Part shown: positions 4,337 to 28,900 of the stretch, in pieces | How the letters are laid out: every line of letters starts with the position of its first letter | Numbering within the stretch: the first letter of the stretch is position 1 | NCBI GenBank assembly: GCA_016748015.1 | Contig: JAAOMT010000135.1 | Coordinates: forward strand, 929,085-993,084 | DNA length: 64,000 bases | DNA from: Geosiphon pyriformis uo1 | Taxonomy: Eukaryota > Fungi > Glomeromycota | Direction: 5' to 3' | Translations under genes and position numbers: made by a program | The notes under the pieces: model-generated | What the model saw: the letters and a program-made list of their open reading frames with translations, nothing else | Database searches by the model: none | What the model was told of the DNA's origin: nothing

Positions 4337-6350
4337 CAATAATCAATATATTTAACTATAACGTGTTATATTTTAACATATAAACCAATAAATATAGTTT
4401 ATGCTTAATTATATATAATTATATATTTAAACCAATTAAAACCAAATTATAATAAATTTACAAAAATAAAACAATTATCTTTATTATAATAACAATTAAA
4501 TTATTATTATTAAAATCATACCAATCAATTATTTAACAGTTTTATTAATATTAATTTTAATATTAAAAATTTAAAGCTTTTAAAAAACCATTATTTTAAC
4601 AAAAAAATTTTTATTAACAAGAATTTAAACTATTTTTATATAAATATACTAATAAGTTTAATAAAAAACTTAATTAGCAAAGTTAACTTAATCAATTCAA
4701 ATTCAAAAAAAACCAATTTAAAATTAAAACAACAATAAATAAAAAAACTAAAGAAATAGTAATCCTAAAATAATTCTTAAAAATCTTAAAAGTTATAAAA
4801 AATAAAATAAAAATATTTTTAAATAAAAGCCAAATAATTTAAATTTTAATATTTAAAATAATATTAATAAACAGAAATTTTTTATTAAATATAATTTTTT
4901 TTAAAATACTAATTTTAACAATAATAATATTCAATTTAGCTTAAAAACCAAAAATAACAATAATATATTTTAATTATTAAACAGAATTAAAAAACTAAAG
5001 AATAAAACAAATATAACTATATACTCAAAAAATTAATTTACTAATTTTAAAACCATTATAGCCAAAAATATTAATTTGATTTTAAAAATGTTTTTTAAAG
5101 TAACAACTTTTTTAAAAAAAATTCTAATATTGTTTTTTTAATTAAAAATATAAAAAAAACTTTTTTTATTCAAAAAGCAATATTTTAAAAAAAGTTTTTT
5201 TGTTTTTACTTTATTATATTTTTTACTATTTTATAAAACATAAATTTTTTTGTTTAAAAACTGGTTAACATTAATATTTATCTTTTGATTAAAATATAAA
5301 TATAATAAAACTTATAATAATTAATTTTTTTATAAGTAATAATTTGTAATAATTAAAAATTATAATTATATTATATTATTGATTAATAATAATTAAAAAA
5401 AGTTTATATATATGAATTTTTTTTAATTTTAATAAATTTTTTGAAAATATGTTATATATAATTAAAACTATTAATTATTATTTTAGAAGTTTTATTATTA
5501 TTATTTAATTAATATAATATATTTGCAATTTAAGTTTTTTATACTTAAATAATTTAATATTAATTTTTTTAATTTCCTTAATATTATCTTAAGCTTTCAA
5601 ATTTGTTATTGAATTATAACAAATTTTAATTATATTCAATTAATTAATTTAATATAAATTTTTATTTTAAAAATAAGATTTATAATTTTTTTAGTATTAA
5701 ATACTTAATTATTTAATACATAATATTAAAGTTTTTGCGACTTTTTTTTTCTGTTTCTGTTTTAATTCAATATTAAATACTGTTTTTATTAAACTAGAAT
5801 AATACCAACAGTTTTAAATAATATATATATGAATATTAAACCAATATTTTTAGATTTAATAAATTATTTAAAATAATATAATAAAAATTTTTATATTTAT
5901 TATTATATTAGTTAACAATATATGTAAACTAACAAGTATAATAATAATACTTAAATACTACAATAATATTAATATTTATTGGTTGTATTTTGTATTTAAA
6001 AAAAACATATATTTTAGTGTTTTTTAATTTTATATTAGTTAAAATATATAATTATATATTAATTAATAATAATAAAACATTGTATTTATATTTAGTTATT
6101 TTTTAATTAAAATTTTCAAGTTATTTACCAAAAAAAATTTTTGTTATTTATGTTTTATTATTATAATAATAATAAAACTATTAAAAATAACCAATAATAA
6201 ATAATTTAAGTTGATAAAATCTATTAATATTTATAATAAATACCACAGTAATATAAAATTTGTTATGCTTATAATCTTCTATTTAACAAGTAATAATTAT
6301 TAATTTAGATTTATCTAAAAAAAACTTAGTTTTAATTATATTATAAATAT

Positions 6351-7179
6351 TATTACAAGTAATTATTTGGGGTGTTAAAACAAATAACAAACCTGTAACT
6401 TGGTGTTTAATAAGTAATATAGTTGATAATATTTGAAGATTTTTGTATCTGAAGGTTTTCATATCTGAAAATTTTAGTGGAGTCCTTTGTATAATAAACA
6501 GAGATTTCTTAATTGTTTTCAGTAGTCTTTTGGAATTGCAATTCTATTAATTTCTTTTTCAGCTTGATAACCAATAATTCTCTGGTAAGTAATCTTTAAA
6601 TTCAACTGTTTACTCTTTTGTAGGAGTTTTTTATCAAGCAATCCTTAATGTTAGTAACTCAGTACTTAATCTTTAATCAATTAATAAACAACAAAACAAA
6701 TAAAAATAAAAATAAAATAAAGAACATAAAAGAATTTAGCCAAGACAAGAAAGAGTTAATATTTTATCAATAGCTATAATCAAGAGCTATTGGTCCAGTA
6801 TACTTAAGTATTAATAATTATCAACATGTATTATTAATAATAAAAAGATAGATTGTAATAGTAATAAGTATTTTTATTGATATTTGATGTTTCCACTTTA
6901 AGTTATAGAATACTATTATATAAAGGAATGGTTATGAAATTGAAGCTAAAGATTCTAAGTTAAGAATTCTGTTTTTTTACTTTTAATACTATTGTTATAT
7001 ATACATAAATTTCATTATACAAGATTTCTTGAATTTTTCTATTTTTTAGCCAGAAATTCTGGAATTTTTGAATCCTGTAATTCTTCATACAGAAATCCTG
7101 AAATTCTACTTTTACTATATCTTATTTTGATTGGCTAATTTATGTACTAATATATAATTCTTATATTCTATGAGTAACA
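6351..7179 (-). repeat. 3' LTR of element A (about 830 bp)
   Basis: T(G>A)TTACA...GTAACA termini; homologous to the solo LTRs at 21705-22527, 35672-36480 and 36548-37532. Confidence 0.85.
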
Positions 7180-7194
7180 TTATCCCTTCTTTTT
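7180..7194 (-). promoter_or_regulatory. Polypurine tract of element A
   Basis: AAAAAGAAGGGATAA immediately precedes the TGTTAC LTR start on the minus strand; element B has GAAAGGAGGGGATAA in the same position. Confidence 0.85.
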
Positions 7195-7325
7195 AATATT
7201 GAGCTCTGTTGAAATTTTCTATATCTCCTAACTTTCCATTTTTGATTAACTTTTAAACTTTTTTTTCGAAAATTACTTAAGTTATTTTGATCTGTAATTC
7301 TTCAAATTAGGCCTTGGTCATTTTA
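7195..7325 (-). pseudogene. C-terminal remnant of the retrotransposon ORF3 in element A
   Basis: Translates KMTKA*FEELQIKIT*VIFEKKV*KLIKNGKLGDIENFNRAQY*, which aligns by eye with the end of element B ORF3 (QLTNLQFQNLQQQINNIVL...NFDGAQS*). Confidence 0.65.
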
Positions 7326-7329
7326 TTAT

Positions 7330-9084
7330 AAATTTTTTACACTTATTAACAAGCAGTAAAAATTTAAAATAAAACCTAGCAAATAAAGAGCTTTTACTAC
7401 AAAAATAAAGACAAATATAATTGTAGAAGAAAATCCAACAAGCACCTTTAAATATATTGATTAAAACAAAAGGGATGGGACTATTCCCTGCATCATTAAA
7501 AGAAAACATCACTCCTAATTGTTTTCCATCAAAAGTATTTTGGATATTATTAATCATTATTGTTTGTTTTCTAAAAAATTCAAACACTTAGTCATTATAT
7601 TATTCATAAAATTGTTTAGCGAAATTAGAATTAACACTTGCAAACAAACATGCAAGCATTTTCTCAATTGAATGAAAGTGTTGGTTTGAGTAGAATAATA
7701 TGGAGGTAATTTTGTATAAATAGAATTAATTAGCACAAGTGTGACCAGTTCTACTCTTATGTTGTTTAAGTATTTGTTGAGATAATCTGTAAAAATAAGA
7801 TTTTGATTCAATAACATGAACATCTAAGTCTGGTAAAATGACTAAATCAACAGAAAGAATTGTTAAACCAGTATTTAAAACATTTGTGGAAATGTAAACT
7901 CACTTTGTTTCATCTATAAATTTGTTATCATAATTGATAACTTGAGTTTTAATCTTACACCAGTTTAACTTGAAAGTTAGTAAAACTCTTTTTTCAACTG
8001 TTGGCATAAAAATTAATACTTTTGAAAAAGCATTATTTACAACTGTGTTGAAACAGAAACCTAAATACTGGTCAAAATTTGGTAATTAACAAAGAAATGT
8101 TTCAATCTCAAAAAGAGTTAATCCTGAAACAGTATACTGCTGGTTAAATGAAATATTATCTGTTAGCATAGTAGTAAAGTACATATTAAGAATCCAATTC
8201 TGTTTAATGAACTTGTAAAATAGTTCTTGAATATAAGCTTTATCTATTATTACAAACCCATTACCTTTATACCAGAGTAAAAAAGAATCAGGAATAGTAA
8301 AAATCACATTTTTTATTACTTTATTAGATCCATAACACCAATTATCTTTACTGAAATCAGTCAATAAACTCAGATATTTTGGAATTGATACTGTAAGTAA
8401 TGCTCTAAAAACTATTACAATTACTTGTTTCTTGAGATGTTTTTAAAGCACAATAAGGAAGTGAATTGATTTACTCCAACCAGTTGGAGCATAAAATAGG
8501 ATTTTTTCATCCAAGTTTAAATTATCTATGATTGGTTGATATTTATTGGACATACCTGATTGATTAACATTAGGCAGGTTCAGTTTTATTAATTAAATTC
8601 ACAGAATTAATTATCTATTTTTCTATTTCTATTAAGAGAAGGTTGAAGTTTAAGTTATAATGTTCAGAGCAAAAATAAGGTCAAAAAATAATTAAAAATA
8701 TTAAAAATAATGTGAAAATATTATTCTTAGTTTCAAATTTAACAAAATTACAAATATTATTGAATAAAAAGATTGATATAAAACTAAATGAAGTATTTAC
8801 ATGATTAAAGAGATCTAGATAAAAAAAAATTGATTCATAAAAACGAGTTTGGAAAATAGTTGTTATTGATTTAAAATTAAATAAAAACAATAATAGAATA
8901 TGATCAATCCAAGAAAAATAACTTTCATTTGATTAATGTTCATAATTTTTAAAGAATTTGAAATTATTACAGTCTAATAACTTAATAATTTCATCTGAAG
9001 TTTGATTGGACTTATCACATATTTGTTGGACATAATTAGAAATCTGGGTATTGTATTTCTTAATTATATATTTAATTAAGATGT
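7330..9084 (-). pseudogene. Endogenous viral element, 3' part: linker plus SF2 DExH RNA helicase, hypo/fusarivirus-like
   Basis: One frame from 8580 to about 7320 carries motif I APTGWSKS (8467-8490), Ia VIVIVFR, Ib TIPDSF, II FVIIDKAY (DKAY 8233-8244), III YFTTM, IV KVLIFMPT, V STNVLNTGLTIL and VI QHKSRTGHT (QHKSRTGH 7741-7764). Single transitions per codon restore GKS, DEAH, SDAGLTIP and QRKGRTGRT. In-frame stops are TAA/TGA. One frameshift lies near 8585. Confidence 0.85.
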
Positions 9085-10882
9085 TGTTACAGAAGTGTTT
9101 TCTTGGTATATTTTAATTGTTAATCCTCTGTTTTAATTGCAATTGGTTTTTTGTGAGTTTTTCTATTTTATGTGTTGGATATTAATAATAATATACTAAA
9201 AGTTTTTTCTTGATGTTGTAATATAAGTCTTCTTTTTAATTTTAGTTGTTTTTGTATGTTGCGTACTCCTTCCCAGAGGCTAATCTGAAATCTACCCACT
9301 GTTTGGGGTCTTTTCTGAGGCTATTTTTACAATTGCCTAATGTGTTTCTCTAATCTAGAAACACGGTGTTACTGGAGGTTTTTGGTCTCTTTTCTGTAAT
9401 GTTGTTGATACTTACTTGCTGTGAATTCACATTTTCTGGATGTGGTTGAACCTCCAATAACTGAATTTATTTTCAAATTATCTCCTATAATTTGAACTTG
9501 CTGAGCTTATAAGTGGAATGGCCAATTCCGTGCCAGTTGCTTTATGTAGTTACGTTGTAGTAAACATCAACTCTTTCCCAGAAATTGCTCATCTGGAAGC
9601 TCACTAAAAATGTGTAGTTACTTTGCTGTGAAAGTCAACTCTTCTACAGGAATCTCGTCTGTAGATTACCCTAATGATTATGATAAGAAAATAAAAGAAA
9701 ATAAAAGAAATGTAAAAGAAATAAGATTTTATCAAGGAAAACGTTTTCTATCCAGGCCTGGAGTCACTAACAGTTTACTGAAATTGGTAGCTAATCAATT
9801 TCGAAATGTTAGTTGGGTTTTGGGGGTTTTCCAAGTACAATAATTAAAGAATTTGGTTTTTTCGAATTATTTGATATTTATTTCTTTTTGTGTATATAAG
9901 AATGGTTTTAAGAGATAAATCTAAAGTAAGATACATTTTCTCGAAAAGAGAAGCTCTTCTTTTATACAACTTGTTGTAACACTATTCTATGAACTTGAAC
10001 TTTGCTATTTTCTACAATTTTGCTGAACTAAAGATACATTTCGGCGAACTATAAGTTATTTCGGCAAACTATTAGATATTTCAGTGAACTATCAATTATT
10101 TCGGCAAATTTCTACAAATTTCGGCGAACTTCTGAATGTTACATAGTTTGGGGTATTGCATGATTGATCATTGCAATTAGGTTATATTTGTGTTGTGTAC
10201 AATTTGGGTTATTAATTAAATGATAATTTCGGACATTTTTTGCCAATGTAATAAGTGATCATTTGATGATAATATATGCTAATTAATGATAGGAATTATA
10301 AGATAATTTCATGCTAAATAATATCTCTAATTTCGTCTGGTAACAACGGAATGTTAATGGCCTTTTTGCGATTTCCCTAAGTATATAATAAAGCTTTTTC
10401 AATTTAATTAGTAACCATGTGAATAATTTTAATCAAGAATTATTTTTCCAAAGAGTTCAGAAATGAAATAATAGTTTCATTTACTAGAGAGAGTATGTGA
10501 ATTCTAATGTTAATCTTGTAATTGTGATGTTTATTCAATTTATTATTTTTATTAATTCTTTTTGAATAAGATTTTATTTAGATATTTGTTGCTTCAAGTT
10601 AAAGCTTGTTTTTCTTTATCATTAAAAACTATTGTATATATATATAATTATTGTTTTACAAAATAACATCTTGTAATACTCTATTTCCATTATTTCTAAA
10701 TAGTGCTTGCTGCTTTTGCATGATAGTGCTTGCTATTATTGTAAAATAGTGCTTACTGCTATTGTACAATAGTGCTTGCTGCTATTTGTAAATCATTTCT
10801 TTTTATAAATTGTTGCTGTGCTATTTTATAATTGGCTAATTTATATTATTTATAATTCCTATTAAATTCTTGAACTATAACA
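9085..10882 (-). repeat. 3' LTR of element B, containing solo LTR C1
   Basis: 9085-9366 plus 10350-10882 align with 19786-20577; PPT at 10883-10897. Confidence 0.9.
9367..10345. mobile_element. Solo LTR C1
   Basis: TGTTAC...GTAACA termini; perfect TSD ACGG (9363-9366 and 10346-10349); homologous to 15667-16625. Confidence 0.9.
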
Positions 10883-14400: not shown

Positions 14401-14794
14401 GTTGGTCCAGATCTATTGTTCCAATGTTTAATTTGGCCAATTTTTCTGGTGTAAATTGATAGCATTCCAATGGTTGTTGTCAATTTATTGAAGTGAGTTT
14501 ACAGTAAAAAGCGATTTCTAGTAAATTTGGAATTTTTTGTGGTGTTGATGCATTTTCTAGCTTCATTTCAAGGTATCCCATAATGGTGTTTTTTGGAATA
14601 TATATGAGCTCTTCTGTGGTATTCGTGATAGGAATTTTTATCCATTGTGTTTTGTCAGCTGGAATAAAAAGGTTAGTAAGTTCTATAGAAAACTGTTGGC
14701 AAGTTTCTGGGTGGGGCTCAAATATTAGATTTATATCTTTTATTGTCCTTTTTATTTTAATTTCTGATTTTCCATAAGACATGAGCATGATTGA

Positions 14795-15260
14795 CTACTT
14801 AGTTTTAATTAATTTGCCTTTTTCTTCTATTGTTTCAGCAAAATTTGCTTTAATTTCTTTTCTTGTTGATCCAAAACTAAAAGTTCCTTTCGTTGTTTGT
14901 ATCAATTCTTCATGATTTTCTATTGGCACAAATTTCCCAATTTTTACCAATGGTAAAAAAATTGCTTGTGCAATCTTTTCCTTAGATTCAATGGTATAAA
15001 GTTTTTTTGAATTGTTTTGTAGTAAAACCATCAAATTTCCAGTGTATCCAGAGTCAATTACTCTTCCTTGAATGCTTATTCTTTTTTTTGCGAGGCTTGA
15101 TTGTGATGCTATTTGAATCATTATTCCTAGCAGAATTTCAACCACTATTTTCAAGTCAATTTTAGTAATGCTCCTGGGTAATAACATTGTGGATTGGTTT
15201 TCTGGATAACATAGATTAAATTTGGTGTCAGTTGGATGAACTTTTTTGGGTATTATCCCT
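14795..15260 (-). pseudogene. dUTPase domain within pol of element B
   Basis: Trimeric dUTPase motifs in order: TKFNL (AGFDL), SQSSL (RSS), GRVIDSGYTG, KIAQ and KGTFSFGST. Confidence 0.9.
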
Positions 15261-20577: not shown

Positions 20578-21245
20578 ATGTTATTTTCTACATCTATTGT
20601 TAAATTGAAAGTTAAAGATAAAATATTGTTATAAAAAATCTTTAGAAAATCATAAATTTGTTCTTTTAAACTTAAAAAATTCTTAAAATCTTCCTCAAAT
20701 TCCTTAAATTCTGTTAAAAAAACTTTTGCAAGATGCTTAGTTAATAGTTCATAAAACTTAATTAATATTTGTTTATAAGTTGAAAATGCAATTTTGAAAT
20801 GAGGGTTTTTAATGCATTTAGGATTTTTCTTAATATATTGATTAAATAGTTGATCTATAATGAAAAATAAATCTTTATAGTAAACTGATATTAGTTTATA
20901 AGCTGCAAATTTTTGAATAAAGTCTGTTTTAGTAGATTTAGATTTTTTAAATTTATTAAATTTTTGAACAATTTTATTATAATTGTGACAAATTTTATAT
21001 TTAAAAAAAGAACCAAAATAATTACTGAAAATCTTTGATTCTTTTTCACTTAAGTGAAATATTGATTTGAAAAGAAATTCACAATTATAGATTGATTCTT
21101 TACTTTTTATTTTAAGAAATAATGTTCTTTTATATTTAAGTTCTGTCAATTTAACAATATCATAAATAGTGTTTTTTGTTTTATTTAAGGTCATATAAGA
21201 ATTTGATTTACAATCTAAAATATTATTATTATCATAATTTGACAA
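20578..21245 (-). pseudogene. Endogenous viral element, 5' part: RdRp motif C to thumb, hypo/fusarivirus-like
   Basis: LSNYDNNNIL becomes LSNYGDDNIL with three A>G reversions (21225-21233). CEFLFK corresponds to motif E EFLSK. ICHNYNKIVQK, ISVYYKDLF (AHHKD) and FSTYKQIL (PTYEQ) follow in the order recalled for Durnavirales RdRps. The frame continues across the element B TSD into 9082. Confidence 0.72.
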
Positions 21246-21584
21246 GTCATAAAATACTATTGTATAAAGAGATAATTATAGAATTGAAACTAAAGGTTCT
21301 AAGCTAAGAATTCTGTCTTTCTGCTTTTAACACTACTACTATATATACATAAATTCTATTATATAAAATTCCTTAAATTCTTCAATTTTCTAGCCAAAAA
21401 TTCTGGAATTCCTTGTAAAAAATTCTGGAATTCTTGGATCTTGTAATTCTTTATATAAGAATTTTGTAATTCTAGAATTTTGCAATTCTTTCAAAAAAAA
21501 TTCTGAAATTATACTTTTACTACATTTTATTCTGATTGGTTAATTTATGTACTAATATATAATTCTTATATTCTATGAGTAACA
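21244..21584 (-). repeat. Truncated 5' LTR of element A (first about 340 bp only)
   Basis: Aligns with about 6899-7179 and includes a TATATATA box (21340-21347). The remaining about 550 bp of the LTR and the PBS are absent. Confidence 0.85.
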
Positions 21585-21704
21585 ATATTAAGATAATTAT
21601 AAAAATCTATAGTAAACAACAAAAATTTGGAATTATTTAAAAAAAATAGAATAATATTTAGATGTTAATATTAAATATTGCACTTTTAGATGCAAATTTG
21701 ACAA

Positions 21705-22527
21705 TATTACTTATAAAATATAAGAAGAATATTAGCATATAAATTAGCCAATTAAAAATAGCTGTAATAAATATGGAATTCCAAGATTTCTCTTAAAAAA
21801 ATTGTAAGATTCCAAGAATTTCAGGATTCTCATATAAAAAATTACAGGATTCCAGAAATTCCAGAATTCTTGAAGTGAAGAATTAAGAAATTGAAAAATT
21901 TCAATTATGTATATATAGTAGTAGTATTAGAAATAGAAAAAACGGACCTCTTAGTTTTAGATTTCATCTAAGCAATCTTTTAATTCACAAATACCAATAA
22001 ATAATTATTTACTATCTTAATCTACTCTCCACTATCAACACTTCATGTTAATAGTATCAAATACTTGATCACATTAGAACAATAGCTTTTGATCATGACT
22101 ATTAACAGATACTAACATTAATTGCCTTGGCTTATTTCTTTATTTTCTTTTATTTTTCATTTTTTTTTATTTTGTTTTTTCTTGTTGTCAACTAATTTGA
22201 TTAAAAATTAAGCACTGAATTATTAACATTAAAGATAACCTGGTAAAAGATCCCAAAGAAAAGTATAGAGTGAAAAATTTAAGAATAACTTACCAGAAGA
22301 GCATCTCTGCCAGATTACTAATCACTATGCTAAGAAAAAAATTTGACAGAATTGCGATTCCAGGAGGCTACTGAAACACTATTGAATTTCTGTTCATTAT
22401 ACAAAAAACTCCAATCCAAAAACCTTCAGATCATGAAAATCTTTAGAAACCAACATTATTATATCAATTGAGTACCAAGTTACAAGTTTGTTATTTGTTT
22501 TGAGACTCCGAATAATCACTTGTAACA
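21705..22527 (+). mobile_element. Solo LTR related to element A, opposite orientation
   Basis: Reverse complement of the A-type LTR; ends TTGTAACA; TSD ACAA/ACAG. Confidence 0.85.
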
Positions 22528-25900: not shown

Positions 25901-28900
25901 ATGGCTTCATCACCTTTACCGCATGACGATTCTCCTGTGCCCCTGCGACCAATAGTTATTAACAAAGTCTTAGACAAAACAACACCACCAATTTCCCCTA
26001 CAAGTCCAAAAATCGTATCTTCAAGTAAAGTTTTCATTAGGAACGCCTTGGAAAAAATCGTTACAAGCCGAGAGGGGAGAAGGAAGGGGAAACTAAAAGA
26101 TAGTCTTGAAAAGGCGCTGGGCATGTTCAAGATCTCAAGTTTATAAATTCTTTTTCATGGAAATATTCATTATATTTTTCATTAACGTGGCTCTAAACAC
26201 CACAGAAATAATAAATAATGACGATCCAGAAGAAGGAAGGTGAAGATCATCAAAAACATATCACGATTTTTCTCTTGTAATAAAATTTTGAATTTTGACA
26301 TTCAAAGTTCCCTTATTTTATTTCTCTTTGAAAAATCACGCTCAAAATATATTATATTGCAGTAGTAATGCCAACATTATATTCGAGCCACTTCAACTCG
26401 CCTGTCAAACAAAATCTGTGGCTCTTATAATAACGGCGTTAGACTGTATTGGGAAGCTCATATCTTATAATTATTTAATCGAAAAACCCGTCGTGCCTGA
26501 TGTTTCAGAGGATATAGATGAATCAGGGAAAACTATACAAACGATACAAAAACCATTAACTGAAAGAACCATTGATACAATTTGTGACTGTTTTGTGGGA
26601 GAATATACGGACGAAAAAATCCAACTTCAAATAATAAAGGTCTTTGAAACTTCTAATTTTACTTTGCTTGATTTTAATTATGATATTGAATTATAAGATT
26701 TTATATATCTATTATTTAATGTTTCTCTAACATTTTAAGGCTTTACTCGAAGCCGTGTCATCAACAGCGGTTCCAATTCATCAATCTTCTCTTTTAAAAT
26801 CTATACGAACCTCTTATAACATATTTTTGCTGTCAAGAAATCCCGCTAATCAGATAGTCGCACAAGGAACATTAACCCAAATGGTGCACCACGTTTTCGC
26901 TAGAGTAAAAATTGCTCAAAATAATAATTCATCATCAATCCCACAAACTAAAGATCAATCAACAAATAATAGAAATTCTCTGATAAAAAGTATTAACTCA
27001 ATAATTCAAGGTGAGAGAGAGTCGGAAGCTGAGGTAGATCTTGGTATGATGGTGGCCAAAACGAATGGAAGTATAGAACATGAACATGAACATGAACATG
27101 AACATGAACATGAACATGAACATGAACATGAACATGAACATGAGCATGAAAATGAAAATGAAAATGAACACGATCAGGCCAAATTGTCTGAAGAATTCGA
27201 CGAAGAAACAATAACCCCCTCAACAGCAGAAGATTTACAAAGTATTATAAATCAAGAATATGGACAGTTAAAAGAAGCCAGTGATTCAAGAGAAGAAATT
27301 GTTAAGGCTGTAGCCGATGAAATGGAAGAAAACAAAGGCTCAGGTGGAGAAACTTCTGCGGAAGGGAAACTCACGTTGTATGTAAACTCCATTACGTACT
27401 ATTTATAATTTCTTTGAAAATTGATTATTACATATTTGTCCTATCCCGCTCACTCAAAGAAAATCATTCGAAAACCGTAAGTCCTTCGAAGGTGCATCAG
27501 AACACGGCCATGTAAATGGCTTTACAATCGATCGACCTGATTTATACGTTAAAGATGCCTTTTTGGTATTTCGAGCATTATGCAAACTCTCAATGAAGCC
27601 ACTTTCTTCTGAATCTTCAATGGATCTGAAATCCCATTCAATGCGCTCAAGATTATTGTCACTACACCTGATATTGACCATTTTGAGCTCACACATGCAC
27701 GTATTTGCATCCTCAGAGGTGGTGATAATATCTTCAACAACTCAAGAGACTACCCCCTTCATACAAGCGGTTAAACAATATTTATGTCTGAGTCTAAGTA
27801 GGAACGCAGTGAGCCCAATACCGCAAGTCTTTGAAATCAGTTTGGAGATATTCTGGAAATGTATGAGCCAACTGAGAAGTCACTTAAAGGTACATACAAT
27901 GTACACAGAACTTTAATCCCTATACTTAAAAAAACATGCATATATCTCTTGGATTTCGGCTATACAAAATATTAATCATTTTGGTTATTATCCTTCCTTT
28001 CTTTGGCGCAGAAAGAAATTGAAGTTTTTTTCAACGAGATTTTTTTACCTATTTTGGAAATGAGGAGTTCTTCGACGCAACAAAAATATGGACTCTTGAA
28101 AATTCTTCTCAGAATTTGTAATGATCCCCAGAGTTTGGTTGAAATCTATTTGAATTATGATTGTGAAAGTGAGGCATTAGAAAATATATATGAAAGGTAG
28201 ATGATCAATCATATGTCTTATTCTAATAGTACTCATGGGATAATTATTTATTTTCATTATTTAGGATTGTGAACATCGTATCGAAAATTACTACAAACTA
28301 CACAACTGGGACTTTGACAACACCTCTTCCCCCCTCTTTTGCCCTTTCAGAACCCGTGAAAGAAAAAGACCTTGAAAATCATACATCAACAGTCACCCCA
28401 TTAACTGGTTCAACTTCGACCATTGTTATTCTCCCGCCGTCTCTCACCACAACCTCTTTTGCAAACACCAAGCCAATTCCATCGTCATCATCATTATTAT
28501 CACAAATCGAAGCAGAGCTTGCCCTCAAAATTCAAGGTCTTGAGTGTCTGGTCTCTATTCTTCGCTCTTTAGTTGCCTGGTGTAGTAATAAGCCTGAAGA
28601 TGAGACAGATACGTATTCTCGAAAAAGTGATGATACTCTCCAAGATGTGACTTCACCTCGTAGTCCATCGGTCCTCGTTAACAATACAAATGGTAATGGG
28701 AAATCTTCTCCTTCATCGTCCACCATGTCGTTCAATTCTCATTCACAAGGCACAAATGAAAAGCTTACTGCATGGAAAGCAATGGATGATCCAGAGCAAT
28801 TTGGAAACTTAAAGCATCGAAAGCAGGTACTTCAAGATGGTATCAGGACTTTTAACTTTAAACCTAAGAGAGTAAGCGACACCTTAATATTAATCACGTT

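Follow-up and report, generated by a model that had tools for sequence, protein, structure and literature searches.

Between the LTRs of a decayed retrotransposon of Geosiphon pyriformis lies a piece of an RNA virus, which has replaced the interior of the element rather than interrupted it. The DNA analyzed is a stretch of 64,000 nucleotides (the window), in which a viral insert of about 2.4 kb, a genuine RNA-virus fragment as judged from its protein relatives, is joined at one end to the inside of a truncated 5′ LTR and followed at the other by a short retroelement tail and a complete 3′ LTR. That the virus was captured with the help of a retrotransposon, in one form or another, is in our judgment quite probable. 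The account that we favor, with a confidence not far above even, is a single event of reverse transcription with two illegitimate template switches, which would have given a chimera without PBS, dead on arrival and inserted by integrase.

Structure of the Chimeric Element

All parts of the outer element lie on the minus strand of the window. In the order in which the element is read, they are as follows.

21585–21588, minus: left TSD copy, ATAT (flank comparison)
21243–21584, minus: truncated 5′ LTR, 342 nt, with U3 repeat array, TATA box and likely start of R (aligned to the 3′ LTR)
21340–21347, minus: TATATATA box, aligned in 5/5 copies of the LTR family in the window; putative promoter element
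21243–21251, minus: overlap of LTR and virus, 9 nt, encoding Y-D-L
20582–21251, minus: viral RdRp from motif C onward (motif now YDNNN), stop-free; P0001 aa 664–891, 60% identity
9085–20577, minus: nested, younger Ty3/Gypsy element; LTRs 20577–19786 and 10882–9085, TSD ACAT
7474–9080, minus: viral linker and SF2 helicase, decayed; P0001 aa 888–1430
7325–7473, minus: divergent hydrophobic C-terminal stretch, probably viral (weak assignment)
7180–7324, minus: retroelement tail at the 3′ side, where an ORF3-like frame ends, with PPT (7194–7184)
6351–7179, minus: complete 3′ LTR, 829 nt
6347–6350, minus: right TSD copy, ATAT (flank comparison)

When the nested insertion is subtracted, the outer element measures 3,737 nt. 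It has no gag-pol: LTR positions past 281 and all of the interior except the last 145 nt ahead of the 3′ LTR are missing, and a coding remnant for the order gag-PR-RT-RNase H-IN is not present in the outer element. An earlier, sequence-only reading of this DNA had proposed that the 5′ LTR keeps its first 340 bp or so and that U5 and the PBS are missing. Both proposals hold: the fragment from 21584 to 21243 is 342 nt long, and the 548 nt corresponding to positions 6898–6351 of the 3′ LTR are absent from it, together with any PBS. The fragment enters the viral frame directly; in the nested element the 5′ LTR is followed by a motif starting with TGG. The same reading took the outer end and the TSD to be intact, which is correct for the TG with which the 5′ LTR fragment begins and for the ATAT/ATAT pair, but the outer ends now read TG...TA, the CA having decayed, and the TSD is weak evidence. 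No contig of sequencing runs X1–X4 spans the whole outer element.

Identity of the Viral Insert

The frame that follows the LTR fragment matched two proteins among 1,202 candidates. One, P0001, is an environmental protein of 1,682 aa with 60% identity to the RdRp piece; the other, P0002 (KAG9293952.1, locus G9A89_019290), is a hypothetical protein annotated in Geosiphon pyriformis, with 70% identity over 130 aa. P0001 contains an RdRP_1 domain (501–724) followed in the same frame by the DEAD (1077–1203) and Helicase_C (1245–1342) domains of an SF2 helicase, and the window is collinear with it. By tblastn, aa 664–891 of P0001 fall at 21251–20574 (60%, E 9e-77) and aa 888–1430 at 9088–7474 (47% and 53%), both on the minus strand, which confirms that virus and element have the same sense. 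Pfam finds no family in the RdRp piece of the window, and its identity as an RdRp therefore depends on P0001 and P0002. The helicase part carries nine stops in 532 codons and one frame change. On either side of the nested element, which carries its own ACAT duplication, the viral frame is in register, and this argues against misassembly.

An RdRp followed by an SF2 helicase within one frame is a feature of the Fusariviridae, and the Hypoviridae are characterized by a polyprotein near 3000 aa; the ORF of the closest relative of the insert has about 1700 aa. A quick RdRp tree was made from 39 rows, i.e., 37 hand-picked fetched proteins, L004 and the window piece, whose own row is 44% filled and of odd composition. 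In this tree the window piece pairs with P0002 as its sister (SH-aLRT 93), within a clade of six rows (SH-aLRT 100) that includes neither the named hypoviruses nor the two named fusariviruses, both of which sit in a separate clade of 20 rows (support 98). The six-row clade neighbors two hypo-like clades, with branching that is unclear (17 rows, support 94, midpoint root). From these comparisons the virus is assigned to an unclassified fusari/hypo-like lineage.

P0002 is a second fusari/hypo-like RdRp fragment annotated in Geosiphon pyriformis, and it is less decayed. At 104 of 113 residues it is identical to the window piece or reachable from it by C>T/G>A, and the nine that differ beyond this reach would fit descent from a different virus strain or a long time apart. 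A Gypsy origin of the tail of P0002, suggested by a resemblance to Gypsy sequence, did not hold up (shuffle p 0.1–0.9 in three of three frames). In the closest viral relative (L001), small ORFs at 1496–2269 precede the replicase ORF, and one of them ends near GDVEENPGP, a motif that we take to be 2A-like; P0011 and P0012 have similar NPGP motifs.

The 5′ Junction Lies inside the LTR

Across the junction the window reads F-Y-D-L-S-N-Y-D-N-N-N-I-L, and at the same site P0001 and P0002 read Y-D-L-S-N-Y-G-D-D-N-I-L. The match to the 3′ LTR extends through 21243, and its final nine bases code for Y-D-L. The earlier suggestion that FYDL stands in frame with SNY(GDD) is thus right as regards the shared YDL, but the F is not viral, the preceding residue being L, I or R in P0001, P0002 and P0011, and the GDD is found only in the relatives. 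Here the window has FYDLSNYDNNNIL, with a decayed motif C that three G>A changes would explain. The distance proposed between the TATATATA box and the junction, about 95 nt, agrees with the 88 nt that separate the end of the box, which starts at 21347, from the start of the overlap and the 97 nt that separate it from the overlap end.

Among the fetched proteins there are 152 matches to motif C; six have YDL in front of it, and all six belong to the closest clade. The sequence-only reading had named a lack of microhomology in the viral homolog as a refutation, and this check turned out in favor of the reading: the closest viral relatives read YDLSNYGDD, and the chance of such an overlap with a sliding breakpoint (transversion-free over at least 9 nt, at least 7 of them exact) is about 0.004. 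When one LTR position and one viral position are fixed, a match of three codons is expected with probability 2e-4. Two of the nine overlap positions are A in the 3′ LTR, and the ancestral state of the LTR therefore matters. As proof of mechanism the microhomology carries less weight: it is present in the relatives, but a genomic deletion at a later time would look the same.

Counted from the start of the LTR, the TATA box is at 238 nt in the 5′ fragment and at about 177 nt in the 3′ LTR, and transcription is expected to start some 25–40 nt downstream of such a box. Because the box is only about 180–240 nt into an LTR of 829 nt, the junction is probably in R, and with such a spacing it would lie 50–70 nt into it.

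On the RdRp piece, run X1 has a unique DNA contig of 721 nt that shows no differences and ends at 21272, with 30 letters on the LTR side of the junction, one below the bridging threshold. If contigs break where words of 31 letters are shared, another LTR copy in the genome likely matches exactly through 21243 (X1 may be the source of the assembly).

The LTR Pair and the Order of Insertions

Over 281 aligned sites the 5′ fragment is separated from the 3′ LTR by 40 transitions and 2 transversions; a further 61 positions, all in the U3 repeat array, are gaps. When the 5′ fragment is compared with three other copies of the family in the window, the transversions number 23/298, 31/269 and 55/272, i.e., 8–20% as against 0.7% between the outer LTRs. 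The outer LTRs are a sister pair from one element. The LTRs of the nested element differ by 72 transitions and no transversions at 792 sites, with 23 gap positions (a repeat unit of 23 nt) in U3, and gaps of repeat units are thus present in both pairs. Transitions amount to 14% between the outer LTRs and 9% between the nested LTRs, so that the outer element is the older one, as the nesting demands.

The flanks of the LTR family show an RY preference, seen in the ACAT of the nested element and in the flanks of other copies. C>T/G>A decay pushes 4-mers toward A and T, ATAT is the likeliest 4-mer under preference and decay together, and an ATAT duplication is for this reason weak evidence. In a search for an empty site, the flanks of the outer element matched no other repeat within the window.

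The window holds five copies of this LTR family in 64 kb. A solo LTR of another subfamily (21705–22527, plus strand; flanks ACAA/ACAG) stands head to head with the 5′ LTR fragment at a distance of 120 nt, and two further LTRs (36480–35672 and about 37400–36545, minus strand) are arranged in tandem without an interior.

The 3′ Side

The viral alignment ends near 7474–7465. The next 150 nt or so are probably also viral: at 7325–7473 the viral frame stays open for 51 codons (p 0.012), and in another frame the stretch resembles the C-terminus of L004 (p 0.008, one of 15 tests). From about 7324 the tail resembles the end of the extra ORF (ORF3) of the family, with p between 0.006 and 0.021 for three related queries. 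The outer tail was not detected when the whole window was searched with an ORF3 profile, and a comparison of the outer and nested tails at the nucleotide level gave no significant match (p 0.26). The PPT of the tail resembles that of the nested element, and it is by the local peptide tests and this PPT that the 145 nt or so are assigned to the retroelement. An X1 contig (7283–9116) bridges both the 3′ junction of virus and tail and the right end of the nested element. The 3′ junction is placed only to about 7325–7312; relatives diverge beyond aa 1430 of P0001.

The Nested Element and Other Features of the Window

In the nested element Pfam recognizes Ty3 capsid, protease, dUTPase and RNase H; for RT and integrase the assignment comes from inspection of the translation. 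Nested and outer element have the LTR start, the TATA context and the PPT in common. The dUTPase (15280–14798, minus strand) is placed after the protease and before RT. The integrase is followed by an extra ORF without a Pfam match (11612–10899, minus strand), which has three matches among 299 candidates, all named from Geosiphon pyriformis; Geosiphon or a close relative is thus the likely host. Two solo LTRs of a third family lie inside the nested element on the minus strand, at 10345–9367 (CCGT/CCGT) and 16625–15667 (TCAT/CCAC), and there are thus three layers of nesting in one orientation. At 14669–14837, contigs of another nested-family copy in runs X2 and X3 lack 167 nt whose ends read GT..AG on the plus strand, antisense to the nested element, by a splice or a deletion.

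Elsewhere on the plus strand there are two LINE-like elements, one with RVT_1 and RNase H (39.9–46.6 kb) and one with an RRM-like ORF (59.8–64 kb), and two host genes, a Sec7/BIG ARF-GEF at about 25.9–33 kb, with a His-Glu repeat at 27064–27195, and a septin at 55–57 kb.

Decay and Expression

The outer and nested LTR pairs together show 112 transitions and 2 transversions. C>T changes occur at 17/22 CpG sites and at 23/47, 34/112 and 36/123 of CC, CA and CT sites, respectively, and the decay is thus of broad context, either RIP-like or driven by methylation. The insert has decayed like the repeats around it: in the viral parts the CpG observed/expected ratio is 0 and 0.08 at a GC content of 18–24%, compared with 0.73 and 33% in a relative, and this depletion suggests long silencing.

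Over the helicase bins, X1 depth is 92–98, close to the 89 of the single matching contig. Runs X2–X4 hardly cover the viral parts; contigs of this kind show presence, not absence. None of the four runs is recorded as RNA; X2, with 0.31 of the words but few contigs of repeats, may be an RNA run. No antisense promoter came to light. The suggestion of the sequence-only reading that LTR-driven transcription could have supplied antiviral small RNAs is speculative and a lead only, one that gains some interest from a hypo/fusari-like EVE of Gigaspora that lies in an antisense small-RNA locus (PMC7082362).

How the Chimera May Have Formed

From the structure, sister LTRs, orientation, overlap and nesting order seen in the window, we infer the following course of copying, jump, LTR-internal completion and integration. 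Minus-strand synthesis would have started normally, and LTR, PPT and about 145 nt of internal tail would have been copied. The reverse transcriptase would then have jumped to a co-packaged viral (+)RNA just beyond the helicase and copied about 2.4 kb, up to motif C of the RdRp. The strand so made, without a PBS complement, would have used the 9-nt match within the LTR for its completion, and would there have paired with plus-strand strong-stop DNA or hopped to the 5′ R end of the element RNA. The product, a cDNA of 3.7 kb that kept both att ends, would have been integrated, and without a PBS the integrated copy would be immobile. C>T/G>A decay and, after it, the insertions of the second Gypsy element and the solo LTRs would have led to the present state.

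An insert in the same sense is expected when (+)RNA is copied in minus-strand synthesis, an established retroviral mechanism. Template switching in a virus-like particle is suggested by the same-sense virus, the intact PPT side, the replaced interior and the overlap at the switch point. The sequence-only reading had specified a minus-strand jump followed by annealing to strong-stop DNA. Viral insert, sister LTRs, PPT side and microhomology all speak for such a scheme, but not for strong-stop DNA specifically: when the junction is in R, as it probably is, the strong-stop and element-RNA routes have identical products and are indistinguishable. The strong-stop route may, in addition, leave a 3′ flap of up to about 550 nt needing removal. 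Some observations count against a one-step origin. In U3 the outer LTRs are set apart by 61 gap positions, although the nested pair also differs there, and in DNA contigs of the nested family there are internal skips whose ends share 9 and 5 letters, at least two microhomology skips among the 15 joints listed, with 185 more joints beyond the list. The comparison with the donor is limited by relatives that are only 60–70% identical to the insert.

Such skips would be the second of two steps in another explanation, which we regard as somewhat unlikely. Here, a longer chimera with full 5′ LTR and PBS captured the viral RNA and was integrated; U5 and PBS, together with any gag-pol and the more upstream part of the virus, were then lost by a deletion mediated by microhomology, whether at the DNA level or during another round of reverse transcription. 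Every feature is then accounted for, including the 9-nt overlap, and internal skips flanked by microhomology do occur in Gypsy copies of this genome. The related EVE P0002, sister to the window piece in the quick tree (SH-aLRT 93), has a full RdRp, and the usual LTR-mediated retrocopies retain the 5′ LTR and can re-mobilize, as described in the available text of PMC5131818. The price is a second rare event, in a neighborhood where the nested element retained its interior of about 7.9 kb and where decay is almost all by transitions; P0002, furthermore, differs at 9/113 residues beyond C>T/G>A.

It is decidedly unlikely that the chimera is a patch made at the level of DNA, with free viral cDNA from any RT, e.g., that of a LINE, captured at a double-strand break and replacing the interior of an integrated element via microhomology. 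LINE-like elements with RT are present in the window, and with LTR sequence making up 41% of the G. pyriformis genome (PMC11952901, as far as its text was available), a break would frequently hit one. The capture must, however, be accompanied by a deletion of about 8–9 kb, the sense orientation and a 3′ breakpoint at most 145 nt from the LTR become coincidences, and the 5′ junction shows neither filler nor poly(A). Very improbable, finally, is a deletion that joined a 5′ fragment from a separate copy of the same subfamily to a virus-bearing element, with a TSD that matches by chance: five family copies within 64 kb, the weakness of ATAT as a match and the 61 gap positions between the U3 arrays allow for it, but the other three copies differ by 8–20% transversions as against 0.7%, and orientation and TSD agree with one insertion.

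In its boldest form the single-event account states that a Ty3/Gypsy RT copied a mycovirus, that the PBS-less cDNA was rescued inside the LTR, and that the RdRp thereby came under the LTR promoter and was immobilized. All of this together is unlikely. If it were true, then, with the sister EVE of Geosiphon, Gypsy elements would repeatedly archive an orphan fusari/hypo-like lineage in Archaeosporales, and the archived virus could feed RNAi, as a fungal counterpart of the insect vDNA/EVE pathway.

Comparison with Known Systems

The closest parallel to the favored account is the LTR-mediated retroposition of cellular mRNAs in animals, for which Tan et al. (2016; PMC5131818) describe a double template switch that depends on microsimilarity. 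In the parts of that paper available, foreign RNA replaces the interior while both termini are kept, as in the window, and the sequence shared at the switch points has a median of 6 bp, compared with 9 nt here. Their cargo is cellular mRNA, part of the internal ORFs is replaced and some chimeras re-mobilize, a property that needs a PBS and is common but not required in such chimeras, whereas in the window the cargo is viral, the 5′ switch is inside the LTR and the PBS is lost.

RNA viruses are also among the known cargoes. The element eBxnv-1 of the nematode Bursaphelenchus xylophilus, a nodavirus RdRp within a Bel/Pao element, has a single-copy (+)RNA virus RdRp between two LTRs, an arrangement shared by the window, and is ascribed to RT copy-choice in the available text of PMC5177903. 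According to the same text it kept PBS, PPT and pol remnants and is transcribed; the insert of the window is without PBS and pol and heavily decayed. In Aedes, virus-retrotransposon vDNA hybrids and EVEs have been described, with work in mosquito cells (Tassetto et al. 2019; PMC6797480), and in mouse, IAP-LCMV (Geuking 2009, as cited in PMC2805616 and PMC2823675). As far as these accounts were available, the RT of an LTR retrotransposon recombines in both with non-retroviral RNA, as proposed here, and the product can integrate. In Aedes the recombination was judged sequence-independent and the EVEs are tied to antisense piRNAs (PMC6797480, in part), while the window shows a measurable overlap.

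In fungi, totivirus-like NIRVs are known from yeasts (PMC2805616, PMC2823675), and Gigaspora margarita has, in g12004.t1, a hypo/fusari-like RdRp fragment in an antisense small-RNA locus (PMC7082362), from the same broad virus group and the same subphylum as the window. The portions of these three papers available show no vehicle for the EVEs, and in the first two viral entry into fungal genomes is assumed rather than seen. In the window both the vehicle, i.e., paired LTRs, PPT and TSD, and the switch point are preserved. The literature, in the parts available, yielded neither a fungal EVE inside an LTR pair with mapped junction nor an LTR-internal viral junction; precedents may exist, among them yeast Ty chimeras. 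RNA-virus capture by LTR elements is known in animals, and a clear fungal fossil with an LTR-internal junction would be new. The locus ties a virus clade represented here otherwise by environmental assemblies only to a likely Glomeromycotina host, and it provides a signature that can be counted in fungal genomes: a virus in the same sense as the element, a 3′ junction close to the PPT, and microhomology at the 5′ junction.
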